Of a DNA stretch of 64,000 bases, positions 11,281 through 56,974 are shown in pieces. Source of the stretch: a bacterium. GTDB taxonomy: Bacteria; Patescibacteriota; Microgenomatia; Daviesbacterales; UBA10151. The position numbers were made by a program, and so were the translations under genes. The DNA is taken from assembly GCA_021790255.1 (NCBI GenBank), contig JAJYIE010000001.1, positions 4,165-68,164 of the forward strand, given 5' to 3'. The notes beneath the pieces were generated by a model. It saw only the letters and a list, made by a program, of their open reading frames with translations. It did no database searches and was not told the DNA's origin. Numbering within the stretch: position 1 is the stretch's first letter; each line of letters begins with the position of its first letter.

Positions 11281-11448
11281 TTAGCAGGTTTTGACATAAT
11301 TTCCTCCACCAAGGTTTTTAACCGCCCCGATAATCTCCATTTTAATGAGCGCGGCCGAAACGCCGGCTACGGGCACCTTCAGCTCCCGGCAAATTTCGTC
11401 AACATGCTTACCATCCCCGACTAAACATTCCAAAACCTCTTGTTCCAT
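11281..11448 (-). CDS. dprA: DprA C-terminal winged-helix (DML1-like) domain. It is encoded in frame downstream of the dprA TAG, so this is a split gene, a read-through candidate, or a sequencing artefact.
   Basis: Manual translation continues in the same frame after the TAG. It reads SKVKSNKLKVKSGNLSK, then MEQEVLECLVGDGKHVDEICRELKVPVAGVSAALIKMEIIGAVKNLGGGNYVKTC*. This matches the conserved DprA C-terminal pattern (EQxVLxxL...VDEI...LP...V..AL..LEL.G.V...G..Y). Confidence 0.6.
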   Translation of the reverse strand: MEQEVLECLVGDGKHVDEICRELKVPVAGVSAALIKMEIIGAVKNLGGGNYVKTC

Positions 11449-11499: not shown

Positions 11500-12372
11500 C
11501 TACCCAAGATCTTCAAATATCTCTCCCGCGTCCGTCACCAGCCTGGCTCCCTGCTTAATCAACATTGAAGGACCGAAGGATACTTCCGAGGTAATTGGCC
11601 CAGGCACAGCAAACACCTCTCTTCCTTGTTCAAGGGCATCTTTGGCAGTAATAAGCGATCCTGAATCCTCAGCAGCTTCAGTTACCAAAACTGCTTGGGA
11701 CAATCCGGAGATAATGCGGTTGCGGGCAGGAAAATTGCCGGGCAAAGATGGTTCATCGGGAGCAAACTCACTGATTAAAGCTCCTCCGCCATCAGCTATA
11801 CGATGAGCAAGGGCCAAATTTTCCGGCGGGAAAATTTTTTTTAAACCCCCACCCAAAACGGCCAGAGTTCGGCCTCCTGCTTCCAGAGCCACCCGGTGTG
11901 CCTCACTATCCACCCCACGGGCCAGACCTGAAACAACAGTTACCCCGGCCTCAGAAAGTCCGCGGGTCAGCTTCTCTGTAACCAGCTGCCCATAGCCAGT
12001 AATTTTGCGGGTACCTACAACGGCAACCGCCTTTTCATCTTCAGGCAAAGTCTGTCCGCGCACATATAAAACCACCGGCGGGTCATAAATCTCTTTTAAA
12101 AGTCGGGGGTAGTTTTCATCGAAAATGGTCAGCCAACCGATGCCAGCCTTTTCCACATCTTCCTGGTATTTTTGGGGGTCAAGTTTCCTGCGGGTTTCTA
12201 AAACGAGCGCTACCACATTTTTCGGTAGGCCGATTCGCGCCAGCTCGCGTCCGTCTGCTTCCCAGGCCAGCTTAGGATCCCCGAAATAATCCAGCACTGC
12301 CTTCAGCCTGATCGGCCCCAGACCCTTGATTGAGTGTAGCGCTAAAAGATACTCAGTATTACTAGTACTCAT
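11500..12372 (-). CDS. dprA: DNA processing protein DprA (Smf). The Rossmann/SAM portion ends at an in-frame TAG.
   Basis: 290 aa. Typical DprA core (GxGxD...VVSGLARGVDSEAHRVALEAGGRTLAVLGGGL). The stop is TAG at 11502..11500. Confidence 0.9.
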   Translation of the reverse strand: MSTSNTEYLLALHSIKGLGPIRLKAVLDYFGDPKLAWEADGRELARIGLPKNVVALVLETRRKLDPQKYQEDVEKAGIGWLTIFDENYPRLLKEIYDPPVVLYVRGQTLPEDEKAVAVVGTRKITGYGQLVTEKLTRGLSEAGVTVVSGLARGVDSEAHRVALEAGGRTLAVLGGGLKKIFPPENLALAHRIADGGGALISEFAPDEPSLPGNFPARNRIISGLSQAVLVTEAAEDSGSLITAKDALEQGREVFAVPGPITSEVSFGPSMLIKQGARLVTDAGEIFEDLG

Positions 12373-12428
12373 AAAATTCAGATTGTCTACCTCACCTTCA
12401 GAAATCTATCAACCATTATAATCTTCCC

Positions 12429-12454
12429 AAAACATTCTCGATCGAGAATGTTTT
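12429..12454. promoter_or_regulatory. Perfect 26-bp palindrome AAAACATTCTCGATCGAGAATGTTTT, a candidate operator at the -35 position of a dprA promoter.
   Basis: Lies 3 nt downstream of the regulator-gene stop and 57 nt upstream of the dprA ATG. On the minus strand it is followed by a 17-nt spacer and a perfect TATAAT (12420..12415). Confidence 0.5.
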
Positions 12455-12457
12455 GGA

Positions 12458-12934
12458 CTAAGCTTTGATTGTTTTTGACTCCATAACAGTAACCCATTCC
12501 CCAATTCCCACCTGATTTATATAATCTTTCAATACTACCCGACAATCTTTCTTGCTGGCCCAAACACTCTTTTGAATCATTGTGAAACCTAGAAGTTTCA
12601 GTTGATGGCGAAAAAGATCACGAGCCTTTCGTCTTTTTTCAGGAATATCCCAGATTACTAACCGCCATTTTCCATCCCATACCTCGTCATCCTGTCTCAT
12701 CTTAATTCGCAGAGCTTGGCTTTTCCCTTGGTCTGTTAACCTCAATGCCAGCTCTTGACCGGTTAAAAGCTCCACGAAACCTTTTTCTCTTAGCCTCTTT
12801 AAAGCTTTCGCTAGAGTAGATTTCTTGACTTCCCTCATCCCCTGAGCATATAAACTGGGGTTATAAGCAAAATCCTCAATTAGGATATATCCATCTACCG
12901 ACTTCTCGAGCGCTAACAGCATCAGCTTTGACAA
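12458..12934 (-). CDS. PaaX-like transcriptional regulator: N-terminal winged HTH plus C-terminal Cas2-like fold domain.
   Basis: 158 aa. wHTH segment STLAKALKRLREKGFVELLTGQ. C-terminal segment WDGKWRLVIWDIPEKRRKARDLFRHQLKLLGFTMIQKSVWAS, following the (Y/W)DI..RR....L...G.r.Q.SVW pattern of Cas2/PaaX_C. The ATG may be the internal M5 at 12922. Confidence 0.7.
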   Translation of the reverse strand: MSKLMLLALEKSVDGYILIEDFAYNPSLYAQGMREVKKSTLAKALKRLREKGFVELLTGQELALRLTDQGKSQALRIKMRQDDEVWDGKWRLVIWDIPEKRRKARDLFRHQLKLLGFTMIQKSVWASKKDCRVVLKDYINQVGIGEWVTVMESKTIKA

Positions 12935-12968
12935 ACTATCTTTTCGATCAAATCTTGCTACTTAAGTC

Positions 12969-12996
12969 CATTATATTCTCGATCGAGAATATAATG
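12969..12996. promoter_or_regulatory. Perfect 28-bp palindrome CATTATATTCTCGATCGAGAATATAATG, sitting between consensus -35 and -10 hexamers of the regulator's own promoter.
   Basis: Minus strand reads TTGACA (13000..12995), a 19-nt spacer made entirely of palindrome, then TATAAT. It shares the 16-bp core ATTCTCGATCGAGAAT with the 12429 copy. It also faces the divergent HD-domain gene. Confidence 0.55.
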
Positions 12997-13069
12997 TCAA
13001 TATTTGCGCGATATCTTCTTCTGTCTATTACCGATTTCTTTTTCAGGCAGCTTAATGTAAAATAGGCCA

Positions 13070-13615
13070 ATGGAATTTTTAAAATTTGCTTCCACGATTG
13101 GTAATCTAAAAAAAATTGAACGGACCGGTTGGGTTAAAAATAATCTTCCTAACCCCGAAAGCGTAGCCGACCACATCTTTAGGGTTGCTGTAATGGCGAT
13201 GGTCCTGGCACCAAAATTGAAAGTTGACCAAAATAAGGTGGTTAAAATGGCTTTGGTTCATGATCTGGCGGAGTCCACTGTCGGTGATTTAGTTCTCGAC
13301 GGTAAATACGCCAATGTTAGCCCGGAGGAGAAAGCTCAGAAAGAGGCAGCGGCACTAAATGAATTGCTCTCACTCATCGATTCCTCTGAAGAATACCAAC
13401 AACTCTTTGTCAAATATGAGGCAGGCAATACCCCAGAGGCAAAATTTGTCAGAAACATTGACCGGCTGGAGATGCTGCTACAGGCTGCAGAATATGAGAA
13501 GGAGTTTTCCACGGTTGATTTAAGTAATCATTTTGAAACGACTATACCTAAAATTGTTGACCCCAAGCTGCAGTCGTTACTGCAACAAATTATCAAGATG
13601 CGCTCAAGTAAGTAG
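13070..13615 (+). CDS. HD-domain phosphohydrolase (YfbR-like 5'-deoxynucleotidase family).
   Basis: 181 aa. H..H and HD motifs (ADHIFRVAVMA...VHDLAES). Confidence 0.8.
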   Translation: MEFLKFASTIGNLKKIERTGWVKNNLPNPESVADHIFRVAVMAMVLAPKLKVDQNKVVKMALVHDLAESTVGDLVLDGKYANVSPEEKAQKEAAALNELLSLIDSSEEYQQLFVKYEAGNTPEAKFVRNIDRLEMLLQAAEYEKEFSTVDLSNHFETTIPKIVDPKLQSLLQQIIKMRSSK

Positions 13616-16118: not shown

Positions 16119-16910
16119 TCAAGGATTCTCTATAACAAAAACATTATCCAGATCCGCCACATCCCAGAGCGGTTTTACCTGGGCTTGTTTGAAAACACCA
16201 TTGGTGTTTTCAAACACCCTGCTCACTTGACCGACAATCAACCCTCTGGGCAACTTGTCCTCTGTGCCCTCCGTATACACAATGTCGCCTGCCGCGATAT
16301 TTTCCTGGTGTAAAATCTTATCCATTAAAATATCTGAACTGAATTGCCCCAGTAAAATCCCCTTGGCCCGGCCGCCAGTGTTTTGCGAAAAAACGGCGAT
16401 CTTGCTGTCCGGATCCTGCGGTAATATAACTTGACTGCTTTTTAGACTCACCTGCTTTATTTGTCCCACCAGGCTGTCTTCAAACACCACTGCCTCATCA
16501 GCTTTAATTCCGTTTTCTGATCCCTTATTTATAATAAGGTAGCGGCCGGAGCTTATCACCTTTGCCAAAATCATCTGATAAGTGGAAGCGCTCAGCTTTT
16601 GATATTGGATACCCAATACCTGGTCTTCTGCCAGTTGGCTGCGAAGTTTACTGTTTTCTGCCATAAGCTGGGACATTTGCATCTTTAAGGCCTTATTTTC
16701 CTGGGTGGCTGTACGGACCGCTGCCAGGTAATCCCACTGCTTGCCTAGAGAGCGGCCAGTCCGGTAAAGGCCATACTCAATCGGCAAGCTGACGTTTTGC
16801 AGCATACCTTTAGGCCAGTTTAAAACATTTAATCCGTCCAAAAGCAACAACAGTAAAGAAAGAATTGTTAAGGATAAAAGAAGCCCGGTGTTGACGGTCA
16901 AAGCCCTCAT
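16119..16910 (-). CDS. mreC: Rod shape-determining protein MreC.
   Basis: 263 aa. N-terminal TM, a coiled-coil (LKMQMSQLMAENSKLRSQLAEDQ) and a beta-rich C-terminal domain. Confidence 0.8.
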   Translation of the reverse strand: MRALTVNTGLLLSLTILSLLLLLLDGLNVLNWPKGMLQNVSLPIEYGLYRTGRSLGKQWDYLAAVRTATQENKALKMQMSQLMAENSKLRSQLAEDQVLGIQYQKLSASTYQMILAKVISSGRYLIINKGSENGIKADEAVVFEDSLVGQIKQVSLKSSQVILPQDPDSKIAVFSQNTGGRAKGILLGQFSSDILMDKILHQENIAAGDIVYTEGTEDKLPRGLIVGQVSRVFENTNGVFKQAQVKPLWDVADLDNVFVIENP

Positions 16911-26587: not shown

Positions 26588-26609
26588 AATATTCTTACCT
26601 TACGCTTAC

Positions 26610-26638
26610 TTGACTGCCCAAAAGTGTTTTGCTACTAT
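26610..26638 (+). promoter_or_regulatory. Sigma-70-like promoter: TTGACT, 17-nt spacer, TACTAT.
   Basis: Hexamers at 26610..26615 and 26633..26638 with a 17-nt spacer, inside a 335-bp non-coding region. Confidence 0.35.
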
Positions 26639-26663
26639 ATAAGTGCCTTAAAAAGGCAAGTAG

Positions 26664-26816
26664 ATGGGTCAAAACCCAAGCCCTACTCGGTACGTTTACA
26701 ATCTAAAGAGTATTTTTCCTCCATCGTTTACCTACTACGGGTTAACCTGGAAGTTGATCCTGATTAAATCGGGGTCGCAGGGTTCCCACCTGTTAGTTTT
26801 GGGGAAAAAGCTTTAG
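26664..26816 (+). CDS. Candidate 50-aa small ORF. The alternative reading is that this whole region is a non-coding RNA or leader.
   Basis: AAGG Shine-Dalgarno sequence 8 nt upstream of the ATG. The ORF MGQNPSPTRYVYNLKSIFPPSFTYYGLTWKLILIKSGSQGSHLLVLGKKL ends 30 nt before a strong terminator. No homology recognised. Confidence 0.2.
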   Translation: MGQNPSPTRYVYNLKSIFPPSFTYYGLTWKLILIKSGSQGSHLLVLGKKL

Positions 26817-26847
26817 ATTACGGCCAAGTGGGGTGAAATTATTCTGT

Positions 26848-26876
26848 CCAGTCCCGTTTCCGGGGCTGGATTTTTT
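26848..26876 (+). terminator. Rho-independent terminator.
   Basis: Stem CCAGTCCCG / CGGGGCTGG (9 bp, one G-U pair), loop TTTC, then A and TTTTTT. Confidence 0.7.
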
Positions 26877-26922
26877 GTAGCCACTTTGACAACAAACTTA
26901 AAATCTTCTAATATTCCAAGCT

Positions 26923-27669
26923 ATGGTTGAGTCAATCAATTATCATACTATCTGGGGTCAACAAGCAGACCGCTTAGCTTATCTATTCGCCCCCGAGCTT
27001 GGTTTATCCAGAGACCAGTATATTGATCATCTGCCCCAATTTGCTCCTCAAGGTAAGGCCGATAAAGGCGTTTTTGATTTCCCACTCTTGGTACAAACTG
27101 CCACCCCAAATCTGACACTGGTGAGAATTTGTGAGGTTACCGGTATTAACGTAGGGTCACCAAACATCGACGAAATGGTAGATTGGCGAGACGATATGAT
27201 TATAAAAATGTGGCGTGATAAAAGAAGCGATACAATAACTAGCGCCACTGTAGACTGGAGTAATGATCCAAAAAAGTTTCGGACTCCCTCTGCACCTTAC
27301 TCAACCTGGATAAATACAAGGATTCAAAAAGACAACAGCGCTTATCAGACCAGAGCCGGCTTAACTTCTCAAGAACGTGGGGGAACAATTTATGACGGTT
27401 TATCACTCTTAATCCAAAAACCTGAGCTTTTAGACAGAGAGGGTCTTGCCCTGCCGGGATCTGAATACTTTTTTGACTTCTTCTTCTCAGATGAAGGTAC
27501 CGTCATTATACTTACTCAAGAGAGTAATCATAAAATCCTAGGTTTTGGTTATGCTGGTCTTAACTATGCCGGGTTTCAGTCCAAATTCCATCCACCCACA
27601 GGCTGTCTGGTAGCCAGCAGAAAAATTGCTACTAAGCGGCGCCAACCTCCAAGTGGCCAAAAACCCTAA
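26923..27669 (+). CDS. Hypothetical protein.
   Basis: 248 aa with no domain recognised. Located directly downstream of the terminator and leader region. Confidence 0.5.
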   Translation: MVESINYHTIWGQQADRLAYLFAPELGLSRDQYIDHLPQFAPQGKADKGVFDFPLLVQTATPNLTLVRICEVTGINVGSPNIDEMVDWRDDMIIKMWRDKRSDTITSATVDWSNDPKKFRTPSAPYSTWINTRIQKDNSAYQTRAGLTSQERGGTIYDGLSLLIQKPELLDREGLALPGSEYFFDFFFSDEGTVIILTQESNHKILGFGYAGLNYAGFQSKFHPPTGCLVASRKIATKRRQPPSGQKP

Positions 27670-27789
27670 TGCTTTAATCTATCTGGGTTGGCAACATGCC
27701 TTCAGAATAAAACCCCGGAGCCTTAGTTAGCCTTGCAAAACGTCCTCCTGTGTGCGCAAAGTTTCAGGTATGCCTGCGCGGGTAACATC

Positions 27790-27825
27790 AGTCCATTATA
27801 TTCTTGACCAAGAATATAATGGACT
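27790..27825. repeat. 36-bp inverted repeat AGTCCATTATATTCTTG-AC-CAAGAATATAATGGACT, the third member of the palindrome family.
   Basis: 17-bp arms with a 2-nt centre. It shares GTCCATTATATTCT...AGAATATAATG with the 12969 copy. It sits in a convergent intergenic region (after the nifU stop). Confidence 0.5.
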
Positions 27826-27859
27826 GATTCCTAAAATAGACTGTATAAATACCTGACAG

Positions 27860-54704: not shown

Positions 54705-56974
54705 TTGGCCGTTTTCTCCACTGCAGCGGAGGGGCTGGCTAAGTTATCCGTCTGAGCCGCTGTTTCCCCTGTTTGCTTAGAGGACTTATCCTGCAGATCA
54801 GAAATCATACTCTGGGCTTCCTGGGCCAGTTCCCCGTCACCGCTTCCTAAGACTGACAGATAATCCTGCAAATAATTTATGGCGCTCGCGTAATCCGGCG
54901 GTTTCTTCTCGTACCCATAAATTCTTCCCAAACCTGCCAGTGCTTCCTTAAAATAAGGGTCAATCTGAAGCACCCGCTTATATTGGGTAATGGCATCATC
55001 ATATAGTTTCACCTGTTCAAAAACATACCCCAGATTATAGAAATGACGGCTGTAGTAAAAGATAATTAATCCTTCAAAGAGCGGGGCATCCCTTTTTATT
55101 CTGGCAAACGATGCTAAATCCAGGCTGTTCCAGAATTTGTCGTTTTCTGCCCGGTAATCCTCCAGCTTCAGGCTCTTTCCGGACTTCAAAACCAAAAAGA
55201 GCATATTTTTCGGCCAGAGGGTATATTTTTGCTCAAGCTCAGGGTCATGAACCACCAAGTCCGGGTTAACATAAATGGGGCGTCTACCGTAGTTTGCATT
55301 AACCAATTGAGTAGTAGATGTGAACACTTTCCCGGGTTTAGGCGTCGGAATGACTAAATCAGGGTAGCGTGCTTTCAGTTGCGGGATAAACCAGGCGAGG
55401 TGGAACTGGCCGGGCGAAAAAGTAACCATGTGATCTTTTCCTTTCTGCTGCACGTAGCGGAAATAGTCCATGGTCATGCCGGCAATATCACCCGACTGCA
55501 ACACCAGGGCGTTATCCGGAAGACCGGCGTAAGCTGCTTGCGTATAATCAATTGTCGCTGTCCCCGCCCGGCCGTTGGCACGGTCGAAATTTATAAGGAA
55601 AGGGGTGACAAAAGAGGTTATAAGCAGCACTTTGCCGATGGCCAGTCCGAATCTCTGATCAGCGGAGCCACTCAGAATTTTATTCTTAATCGAGAATACC
55701 CCGTCTGCTTGCAGCGAGGATGAATCAATCACAGAAGAACCTGCCCGGGGGGAAACCTCGCCAGCTTTGCTGCGAGGTAGTTCATTAAATAATTTATATA
55801 TCATCAGCAGTCCGAATGCTATAAAAAGAGTAACAAAAATGTTCGGCAGCATAAAAAACCGTGCCGCTGTTGCCTGGCTGAAATCATCTCCCAGAGGGAA
55901 ATCGGCGTAAGCAAGAAAAAGAAAGCCGCTTACAAAAAAACCCGTGCTGATAAAAATAAGTATCCGGTGAAAGGCAAGGGGCCTCCCCCGCCCCTCCTTC
56001 CACAGATAGAAAATACCGGCCACAGCAAAGATTGCCCCGATGATCGAAAAATCAAGGACAATATATTTCAAGTAAAACCAGGCCTCCTCAAACACAGACG
56101 GCGCGCCGCTGGTATCCGATCCGGCCAGGTAGGCAGAAAAAGTCCCGAAGTCCTGGCGGGTTAGGGCGCTTATCGCATCCGGAATAGTTTTTATACCCCC
56201 CCAATTAAGCGGCGGGTTTTTTGAGGCAATAAAGATCAGCAAAAATACATACGGCAGAATCCCCACTAAAAAAGCCGGAATTATCAAAGCGGCCCTGGAC
56301 GGGCTCTTGAAGATATTTACTACCGGGGTTGTTAAAAGCAGAAAAAATACCGCCGGGAAAACCAACACCGCTGTTTCATGATGTGAGAAGGCAAATCCGG
56401 ACAAAACCGCCAAAATCAGCAGCATTTTTAAAGAGCTTAGAAAGGAAATGGTTGGCGCCGATTTAAACTTCCGGCAAATCCGCACCGTGATAAACAGGAT
56501 ACTTACTACAAAAAAGTTGTTTAGGGGAAACACTTCAAATTTAGTGGCATACTGCCAAAAAACAGTGTTAAAAGCTAAAAACATGCCGGCGGTAAATGCA
56601 ACCAGATAGTAGCCAGTTTCCGGGTCCTTATCCAGCCCGGAGTCCGGCAACCGGCGAGAGTCTGAGTCAGCGAGCCTGAAAAGATCCAGCACCAGAAAAT
56701 AAAACACGAGCACGCTCAAAGCTTGAAGGAGCGCGGAAACCGCATTAATCCGCTCAATCGGGTTAAGCGGCAGCGGCAGTTCGTAAGCAATATGGCCCAA
56801 AAGCGTATTGACCGGGTAGCTTGGTTGGTGCGGTACTCCCAGCACCACGGCGGCAGTGACCATTTCAGTACTATCTCCGGCAGATATGGAGGGCGATAAA
56901 GTAAAAATATAGACGCAAAAAGGTATTAAAAAGGCCAAAAGGGCAACCAGTTGTTTAAAAATAATTTTTTTCAT
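54701..56974 (-). CDS. DUF2723/TMTC-like polytopic membrane protein with C-terminal TPR repeats.
   Basis: N-terminal SAGDSTEMV motif region. About 11 TM helices. TPR-like repeats (YDDAITQYKRVLQIDPYFKEALAGLGRIY). Confidence 0.65.
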   Translation of the reverse strand: MKKIIFKQLVALLAFLIPFCVYIFTLSPSISAGDSTEMVTAAVVLGVPHQPSYPVNTLLGHIAYELPLPLNPIERINAVSALLQALSVLVFYFLVLDLFRLADSDSRRLPDSGLDKDPETGYYLVAFTAGMFLAFNTVFWQYATKFEVFPLNNFFVVSILFITVRICRKFKSAPTISFLSSLKMLLILAVLSGFAFSHHETAVLVFPAVFFLLLTTPVVNIFKSPSRAALIIPAFLVGILPYVFLLIFIASKNPPLNWGGIKTIPDAISALTRQDFGTFSAYLAGSDTSGAPSVFEEAWFYLKYIVLDFSIIGAIFAVAGIFYLWKEGRGRPLAFHRILIFISTGFFVSGFLFLAYADFPLGDDFSQATAARFFMLPNIFVTLFIAFGLLMIYKLFNELPRSKAGEVSPRAGSSVIDSSSLQADGVFSIKNKILSGSADQRFGLAIGKVLLITSFVTPFLINFDRANGRAGTATIDYTQAAYAGLPDNALVLQSGDIAGMTMDYFRYVQQKGKDHMVTFSPGQFHLAWFIPQLKARYPDLVIPTPKPGKVFTSTTQLVNANYGRRPIYVNPDLVVHDPELEQKYTLWPKNMLFLVLKSGKSLKLEDYRAENDKFWNSLDLASFARIKRDAPLFEGLIIFYYSRHFYNLGYVFEQVKLYDDAITQYKRVLQIDPYFKEALAGLGRIYGYEKKPPDYASAINYLQDYLSVLGSGDGELAQEAQSMISDLQDKSSKQTGETAAQTDNLASPSAAVEKTAK

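Follow-up and report, generated by a model that had tools for sequence, protein, structure and literature searches.

The phenylacetyl-CoA-responsive repressor PaaX of Escherichia coli (PDB 8a39, TIGR02277) has, in order from its N terminus, a winged helix, a Cas2-like dimerisation domain and a C-terminal five-helix effector domain. PaaX binds widely spaced inverted half-sites, TGATTC-N27-GAATCA, and represses its own promoter (Px) through steric hindrance, or occlusion (PMC9493321). Here we analyse a 64-kb stretch of DNA (contig JAJYIE010000001.1, positions 4,165 to 68,164; hereafter the window) from a candidate-phyla-radiation bacterium that is Daviesbacteria-like, in which one gene, present in a single copy, encodes a short PaaX-like protein that we term the regulator and is flanked by two perfect palindromes. 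To our knowledge, gene regulation in candidate-phyla-radiation bacteria is almost unknown, and very few recognisable transcription factors have been found in them.

Partial parallels to the regulator exist in other protein families. Cas2 and VapD, a CRISPR adaptation subunit and an endoribonuclease toxin, share its β1-α1 sequence pattern, including a conserved Asp. Lrp/AsnC regulators (FFRP) are analogous in combining a (winged) helix-turn-helix at the N terminus with a C-terminal ferredoxin-like β-α-β-β-α-β oligomerisation domain, and are often autoregulatory. MarR and PadR proteins are small dimeric winged-helix repressors that act on palindromes overlapping their own promoters and control an adjacent gene.

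An original prediction, made from the DNA letters, described a minimal PaaX-like regulator (winged helix-turn-helix plus Cas2-like fold) flanked by two palindromes and wired to dprA and to an HD-domain gene. All of these elements were found, with four small corrections, and, as far as sequence can tell, the description 'minimal PaaX-like' holds. Starting from the observed domain architecture, the two sites, and their conservation and co-variation, we infer binding, the sign of regulation and control of dprA: the regulator is probably a dimeric, sequence-specific, autoregulated local repressor of the PaaX structural type, with its gene bracketed by two operators.

A probable short regulator of the PaaX type

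Profile searches revealed that residues 84–155 of the regulator match Pfam PaaX_M (PF20803), the Cas2-like middle domain of PaaX, with an E-value of 7.6e-22 and 77.7 bits against a cut-off of 24. The predicted combination of a winged helix-turn-helix with a Cas2-like domain, with PaaX as the nearest relative, was borne out, but the domain is PaaX_M and not PaaX_C as originally proposed; no match to PaaX_C (PF08223) was found in the regulator, whose chain ends at residue 158, directly past the Cas2-like domain. Winged-helix profiles match the N-terminal half below threshold only (E 0.01–0.2; PadR 16.1 bits, cut-off 27; MarR 12.7 bits, cut-off 24.6). The TIGR02277 PaaX equivalog model aligns with residues 39–142 at 36.5 bits, against a cut-off of 264.55, and both this model and the sequence of the PaaX crystal structure align onward from about residue 39–50. 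A structure model built from 117 homologues (predicted local distance difference test score, 76.7) contains a confident β-α-β-β-α-β domain after N-terminal helices at residues 3–24, 26–30, 40–51 and 68–81, with a low-confidence wing at 54–66; an earlier model from 23 sequences had been poor in the N-terminal half, which the larger alignment improved, the wing excepted. The public record of the protein (P0001, 100% identical) starts at ATG 12922 and has 154 residues, TTG 12934 being the earliest possible start.

Although PaaX is the best match in both structure and sequence, the regulator is half its size and lacks the five-helix effector domain. Its neighbours are dprA, the HD-domain gene, the gene for PBP2 and others, with no paa genes among them; it keeps the Cas2-type D-x-P-E motif and a basic helix α1, both of which E. 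coli PaaX lacks in the alignment; its family's operator has a conserved CGRYCG centre and sits on both sides of the gene; and the family is multi-copy per genome. The effector domain, family score and gene context set the regulator outside PaaX itself, as a new variant of the PaaX type. The short PaaX-like family to which it belongs is uncharacterised, and our search of the literature on PaaX/Cas2, PF20803 and Patescibacteria transcription factors found nothing on it.

Cas2 profiles match the β1-α1 segment (Pfam, 1.7e-4, 22.1 against a gathering threshold of 23.8; NCBIfam cas2, TIGR01573, 27.8 against 24.5 bits; PADLOC Cas2, 4e-7), and the regulator has the ferredoxin-like fold with a conserved Asp following β1 that is characteristic of Cas2. 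This residue, D96 (window 12647..12649), is the equivalent of the Cas2 metal-binding Asp and lies in a D-[IV]-P-E motif; it is invariant in 80 of 80 aligned members. Unlike Cas2, which is a stand-alone protein of ~90–100 residues encoded with cas1 beside a CRISPR array, the Cas2-like domain of the regulator is fused to a DNA-binding domain. On each side of family members, the 25 most frequent neighbour families contain no cas genes, cas1 included, and the window holds no CRISPR array. A PADLOC scan of the regulator returned only Cas2 and weak winged-helix matches, and PHROGs gave a single weak match to a transcriptional regulator. The combination of HTH_AsnC and AsnC_trans_reg (RAM) domains that marks Lrp/AsnC proteins was not found in the regulator. 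It would also differ from MarR and PadR proteins in dimerising through the separate Cas2-like domain and not through terminal helices, and in having a predicted operator of ~30 bp in three blocks.

The family is large and lineage-expanded. There are more than 1158 close homologues, mostly of 150–200 residues, and the named ones come from Candidatus Daviesbacteria. A profile search of 1.84 billion cluster representatives returned 5619 clusters at E≤1e-3 and 2767 at E≤1e-10, that is, thousands of 50%-identity clusters, and a genome scan yielded 79 loci from Daviesbacteria, Curtissbacteria, Blackburnbacteria and other Microgenomates, with up to 7 loci in one ~1-Mb genome. Homologues are labelled 'hypothetical', 'Cas2' or 'PaaX repressor' in public records. 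P0030 and its relatives, publicly named 'CRISPR-associated endonuclease Cas2', score just above the NCBIfam cas2 cut-off; because this cut-off is narrowly passed, these proteins carry Cas2 annotations, which probably amount to a systematic misannotation that the present analysis flags.

Two palindromes bracket the gene and are conserved with it

The two palindromes share a 16-mer, ATTCTCGATCGAGAAT, that occurs exactly twice in the window; with up to three mismatches it has four matches, against 0.17 expected. Perfect palindromes with arms of at least 10 nucleotides (nt) number five distinct cases in the 64 kb, against a mean of 0.33 in first-order Markov simulations, and three of the five carry the regulator's motif. 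The observation is real and far above chance. The palindrome on the dprA side exists as predicted, perfect and with the same core, and is 30 bp long, not 26 bp. The 28-bp palindrome was likewise correctly located, except that it does not lie exactly between TTGACA and TATAAT: it contains the TATAAT box and overlaps TTGACA by 2 nt (Table 1).

This layout recurs throughout the family, for which all counts given here cover 81 members from Daviesbacteria and other Microgenomates. The operator in the regulator's own promoter, which the original prediction read as an autorepression layout, is conserved: in 80 of the 81 a CGRYCG-centred site is found at most 130 nt upstream of the gene, between a TTGACA box and a -10 box. 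A second CGRYCG-centred site follows within 100 nt downstream in 70/81, its core starting most often exactly 12 nt past the stop codon. The family consensus has three blocks, namely an outer ACAAA/TTTGT pair, paralogue-specific inner arms and a nearly invariant ACGRYCGT centre. Upstream sites have a TTGACA-like -35 box (mean 5.2 of 6 positions; 71% of members have at least 5 of 6 at the equivalent position), and the -10 box follows at 18–19 nt, a spacing that recurs family-wide, so that the operator lies in the spacer. Among 14 syntenic loci from other genomes (mreC-mreD-PBP2-[x]-regulator ... clp), nearly every one shows TTGACA, a few bases, the palindrome nTTCnCGRYCGnGAAn and a -10 box, with a second copy right after the stop codon.

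At many genes in the upstream regions of loci L001–L079, including most regulator paralogues and the HD-domain gene of the window, a -10-like box stands only 4–8 nt before the ATG, which suggests widespread leaderless transcripts in these genomes. The family as a whole thus offers predicted operators together with a promoter model, in which TTGACA is followed by an 18–19-nt spacer holding the operator and by a -10 box often placed as for leaderless transcripts.

The two copies of a locus also change together. Over the 20 flanking bases, centre excluded, the arms of the two copies agree at 14.1/20 positions within a locus and at 8.5/20 between loci. Orthologues alter both sites at once: L014 carries GTGACGATCGTCAC twice, and variant centres appear in both sites of a single locus (CGGCCG in L001, CGACCG in L004). 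As the arms change together between genomes, the two palindromes would share one reader, in agreement with the claim that the same factor reads both. Operator-arm identity tracks protein identity (rho 0.28, a value reached by 0 of 500 Mantel permutations), whereas a control 16-mer 54–70 nt further upstream does not (rho 0.02). The palindromes are evidently under selection and coupled to the adjacent protein, and their conservation and co-variation constitute strong indirect evidence that the regulator binds them.

The regulator dimer, with its winged helices and Cas2-like dimerisation core, would bind the ~30-bp palindrome through outer arms, paralogue-specific inner arms and the CGRYCG centre. 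The upstream copy fills the spacer of the regulator's own TTGACA/TATAAT promoter, and bound regulator would there exclude RNA polymerase, resulting in negative autoregulation as demonstrated by experiment for PaaX at Px. A dimer on the downstream copy would stop transcription that reads through from the regulator gene and would also cover the dprA promoter, such that dprA expression would follow occupancy by the regulator.

Table 1. Features of the regulator locus and related sites (window coordinates).
Feature	Position	Strand	Details
Regulator gene	12458..12934	minus	158 aa from TTG 12934, 154 aa from ATG 12922; stop codon TAG 12458..12460
N-terminal winged-helix-like region (~aa 19-81)	12692..12880	minus	sub-threshold PadR/MarR/GntR matches; TIGR02277 alignment; structure model
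Cas2-like (PaaX_M) domain, aa 84-155	12470..12685	minus	β-α-β-β-α-β; invariant D96-x-P-E; basic helix α1, aa 99-115
Upstream operator (predicted)	12969..12996		28-bp perfect palindrome CATTATATTCTCGATCGAGAATATAATG; core ATTCTCGATCGAGAAT at 12975..12990; equivalent site in 80/81 homologous loci
Downstream operator (predicted)	12427..12456		30-bp perfect palindrome CCAAAACATTCTCGATCGAGAATGTTTTGG; begins 1 nt past regulator stop; equivalent site in 70/81 loci
-35 box TTGACA, regulator promoter	12995..13000	minus	overlaps palindrome by 2 nt
-10 box TATAAT, regulator promoter	12970..12975	minus	part of palindrome; spacer 19 nt
TATAAT before dprA	12415..12420	minus	read from sequence; 6 nt past downstream operator, 42 nt before dprA ATG (12372); no recognisable -35
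dprA core	11500..12372	minus	290 aa, closed by in-frame TAG
DprA winged-helix domain, separate open reading frame	11281..11448	minus	55 aa
HD-domain (YfbR-like) gene, divergent	13070..13615	plus	operator linkage not conserved
Orphan 42-bp palindrome	27787..27828		20-nt arms as in upstream operator; centre TGACCA, not CGATCG; between convergent 248-aa hypothetical gene and nifU

As RNA, the three palindromes of the window that carry the motif also form strong hairpins (-15.6 to -27.1 kcal/mol, z -3.8 to -7.4), and the third copy is flanked by convergent genes, a setting in which one expects a terminator; the palindromes might accordingly be nucleic-acid structures, either terminator hairpins or elements like repetitive extragenic palindromes, that are not protein sites and adjoin the gene incidentally. 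We regard this as very improbable. None of the three hairpins is followed by a U tract, and the upstream copy lies between -35 and -10 and hence outside the regulator transcript. Many paralogues have asymmetric sites that pair poorly, yet these persist in the two copies of a locus and among orthologues (for example, TCCTCCGRYCGTGGTACA), and the arms co-vary with the adjacent protein.

CGRYCG is the specificity of known type II restriction enzymes of the BsiEI type, and its invariance at the operator centre would fit binding by another factor (a global regulator, for instance, or part of a restriction-modification system), with the adjacent protein serving some other role. This is a most improbable reading, given that the paralogue-specific arms co-vary with the adjacent protein, including residue 106 with base -2 (see below), and that a single global factor could not read seven different arm sequences in one genome. 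Nor is the hexamer avoided, 57 sites being present in the window against ~49 expected from base composition, and a restriction-modification link was rejected on this ground. Xer/dif-like recombination sites (11-6-11) were also considered and discarded, the arms differing between paralogues of one genome.

That direct copies of a ~30-bp palindrome bracket the gene in 70/81 loci, with up to 7 paralogues per genome and an orphan site at 27787..27828, also invites comparison with a mobile or selfish cassette. Its Cas2-like domain would be a site-specific nuclease or recombination factor acting on the ~30-bp repeats, loosely like Cas1-Cas2 repeat duplication, and the orphan palindrome an empty or solo site; the invariant D96 leaves a small opening for this idea. 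We give it very little credence: the cassettes occupy stable syntenic positions across genomes whose regulator proteins are only 51–68% identical, the commonest neighbour families include neither Cas1 nor an integrase or transposase, and the window is free of CRISPR-like arrays. The repeats, moreover, differ among paralogues, which fits diverging operators and not a shared recombination site, and the upstream copy is embedded in a canonical promoter. What the family does display is a conserved gene-bracketing layout.

The downstream copy and dprA

The identities assigned to dprA and the HD-domain gene by the original prediction were confirmed by profile matches, dprA matching PF02481 at 3e-78, and so was the linkage of dprA to the regulator, as dprA with its winged-helix domain lies downstream in 13 of the 14 syntenic loci. 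DprA acts in the processing of incoming DNA, and candidate-phyla-radiation organisms are believed to depend on taking up foreign DNA and nucleotides; the locus is hence a candidate control point for this gene. In the window an in-frame TAG (11500..11502) interrupts dprA in the linker ahead of the winged-helix domain, whose open reading frame starts at ATG 11448. The same split is present in a second (Logan) assembly of run SRR13170411, and the DprA of L007 ends naturally at that point.

A repressor dedicated to dprA, as initially envisaged, gains no support from the family-wide picture. The downstream palindrome is a feature of the cassette, about as frequent before convergent genes (19/22 loci) as before co-directional ones (43/50), and it stays with the regulator when a gene is inserted before dprA (L005, L008, L010) or when dprA is missing (L009); for these reasons the downstream copy belongs to the regulator cassette. 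Since it occurs family-wide whatever the direction of the next gene, its presence alone is no argument for dprA control. Paralogues are followed by a variety of genes (DprA, M1 aminopeptidase, Mur ligase, ZIP transporter and others), and their upstream neighbours are varied too (PBP2, GH1 glycosidase, DnaB and others).

These data bear on a second form of the repressor hypothesis, in which the downstream palindrome is an auxiliary operator for the regulator itself, acting by looping between sites ~540 bp apart or as a 3′-end roadblock or insulator, and dprA is merely syntenic. We hold this to be possible, though below even chances. The persistence of the site before convergent genes and in loci with an inserted gene or without dprA speaks for it, as do the locking of the site to the stop codon (mode 12 nt) and not to the next gene, and a centre-to-centre spacing of the two sites of 542 ± 14 bp. 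Against this, the spacing ranges from 518 to 570 bp, with one outlier at 612, which does not suggest a tight helical-phase constraint, and in the 43/50 co-directional loci the site lies directly before the next gene, and a -10-like box often accompanies it. Read-through into dprA would remain gated by a roadblock placed here, and the auxiliary-operator hypothesis therefore overlaps with that of a local repressor acting on both promoters.

Several observations weigh against the latter, which we nonetheless prefer. The winged helix-turn-helix is represented by sub-threshold profile matches and its wing is poorly modelled, and neither an effector domain nor a signal is evident for the regulator. 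A consensus scanner missed the regulator promoter because its range was 16–18 nt and the spacer measures 19 nt. At the downstream site, beyond its similar frequency before convergent and co-directional genes, the -35 quality is no better where a co-directional gene follows, and the TATAAT before dprA in the window lacks a -35 box. In L028 the ATG of dprA falls inside an operator arm, for which reason the downstream site of that locus cannot be a classical promoter. Control of dprA by the regulator is plausible from its position: the downstream site in the window stands where any transcription entering dprA would have to be affected, be it through occlusion of the TATAAT box or through a block to read-through.

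Co-variation of residue 106 with operator bases

When protein columns are compared with operator positions, mutual information is highest in helix α1 of the Cas2-like domain and not in the putative recognition helix. Where residue 106 (window 12617..12619) is Asp, base -2, beside the centre, is C, T or A, and G in 0 of 108 half-sites; where 106 is Asn, His, Glu or Gln, G stands at -2 in 22/52 half-sites, all G cases having Asn or His (Fisher 4e-13, not corrected for phylogeny). Five or more separate lineages show the switch at residue 106, L014 of the dprA orthogroup being one of them. Neither the putative recognition helix (KRLRE) nor the outer arms vary.

The α1 co-variation, the invariance of both the KRLRE helix and the outer arms, and the 27-bp separation of PaaX half-sites together suggest an arrangement with the winged helices placed on the outer arms, where the Cas2-like dimer would face the centre. 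A bolder version, which we put forward tentatively and consider rather unlikely, is that the Cas2-like domain itself reads DNA: the basic α1 would contact the inner arms and the CGRYCG centre, with the winged helices on ACAAA/TTTGT, changes in α1 would re-target paralogues, and D96 might add a metal-dependent switch or a residual nuclease function. If so, Daviesbacteria would hold mutually orthogonal, self-bracketed repressor-operator cassettes, each with a regulated promoter for the downstream gene. The correspondence between residue 106 and base -2 provides a testable amino-acid/base specificity rule.

The divergent HD-domain gene

The product of the HD-domain gene matches HD_3 (1.6e-42) and YfbR-like (2e-16) profiles. 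The suggestion that this gene is a target of the repressor found no backing: an HD-gene homologue was found beside the regulator in the window and in no other locus, and its position is taken in some orthologous loci by unrelated hypothetical genes. A -10-like box belonging to the gene itself (TAAAAT, 13058..13063) stands 6 nt ahead of its ATG, and the plus-strand TATAAT within the upstream palindrome lacks a -35 box and follows from the perfect symmetry. We consider regulation of the HD gene by the regulator unsupported.

Sites elsewhere

A regulon beyond the cassette, as the original prediction anticipated, did not emerge from a scan of the 64 kb with the core and half-site, which returned the two operators, the variant at 27787..27828 and a 2-mismatch match in coding sequence at 55682. 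The 8-kb loci likewise yielded no further copies of the locus-specific operator. The orphan palindrome at 27787..27828 folds as a -27 kcal/mol hairpin with no U tract after it. Its origin as the relic of a lost paralogue was rejected, as a search for regulators beside nifU, sufS or the 248-aa gene in other genomes returned none. The 248-aa protein (26923..27669, plus) has no Pfam or PHROG match and, in L002 and L028, has a distant homologue (E ~1e-9) encoded by the gene that diverges from the orthologous regulator.

A metagenome scan for CCANNNNATTCTCGATCGAGAAT gave 10 matches, 9 of which fall in contigs of 49–66% G+C without a regulator homologue or promoter-like context and are probably due to chance. 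The other is in L081 (1140..1504), a 3.9-kb contig of 35% GC, where TGACAATAAATTCTCGATCGAGAATATAATGG, nearly identical to the promoter-operator of the window, stands 55 nt before an open reading frame for a 93-aa membrane protein; no regulator gene is present on these 3.9 kb. The L081 site is a plausible orphan promoter-operator, and because of it targets away from the cassette may exist.

Among the five perfect palindromes of the window, that at 16186..16216 is a 31-bp element (TGTTTGAAAACACCATTGGTGTTTTCAAACA) within mreC coding sequence and has no relation to the CGRYCG motif. The window gave no matches in Rfam and tRNA scans. A 335-nt intergenic stretch past the PBP1A gene (26588..26922), without a match in Rfam or to tRNA/tmRNA, closes with a terminator-like GGGGCTGGATTTTTTG and may represent an RNA that lacks annotation.

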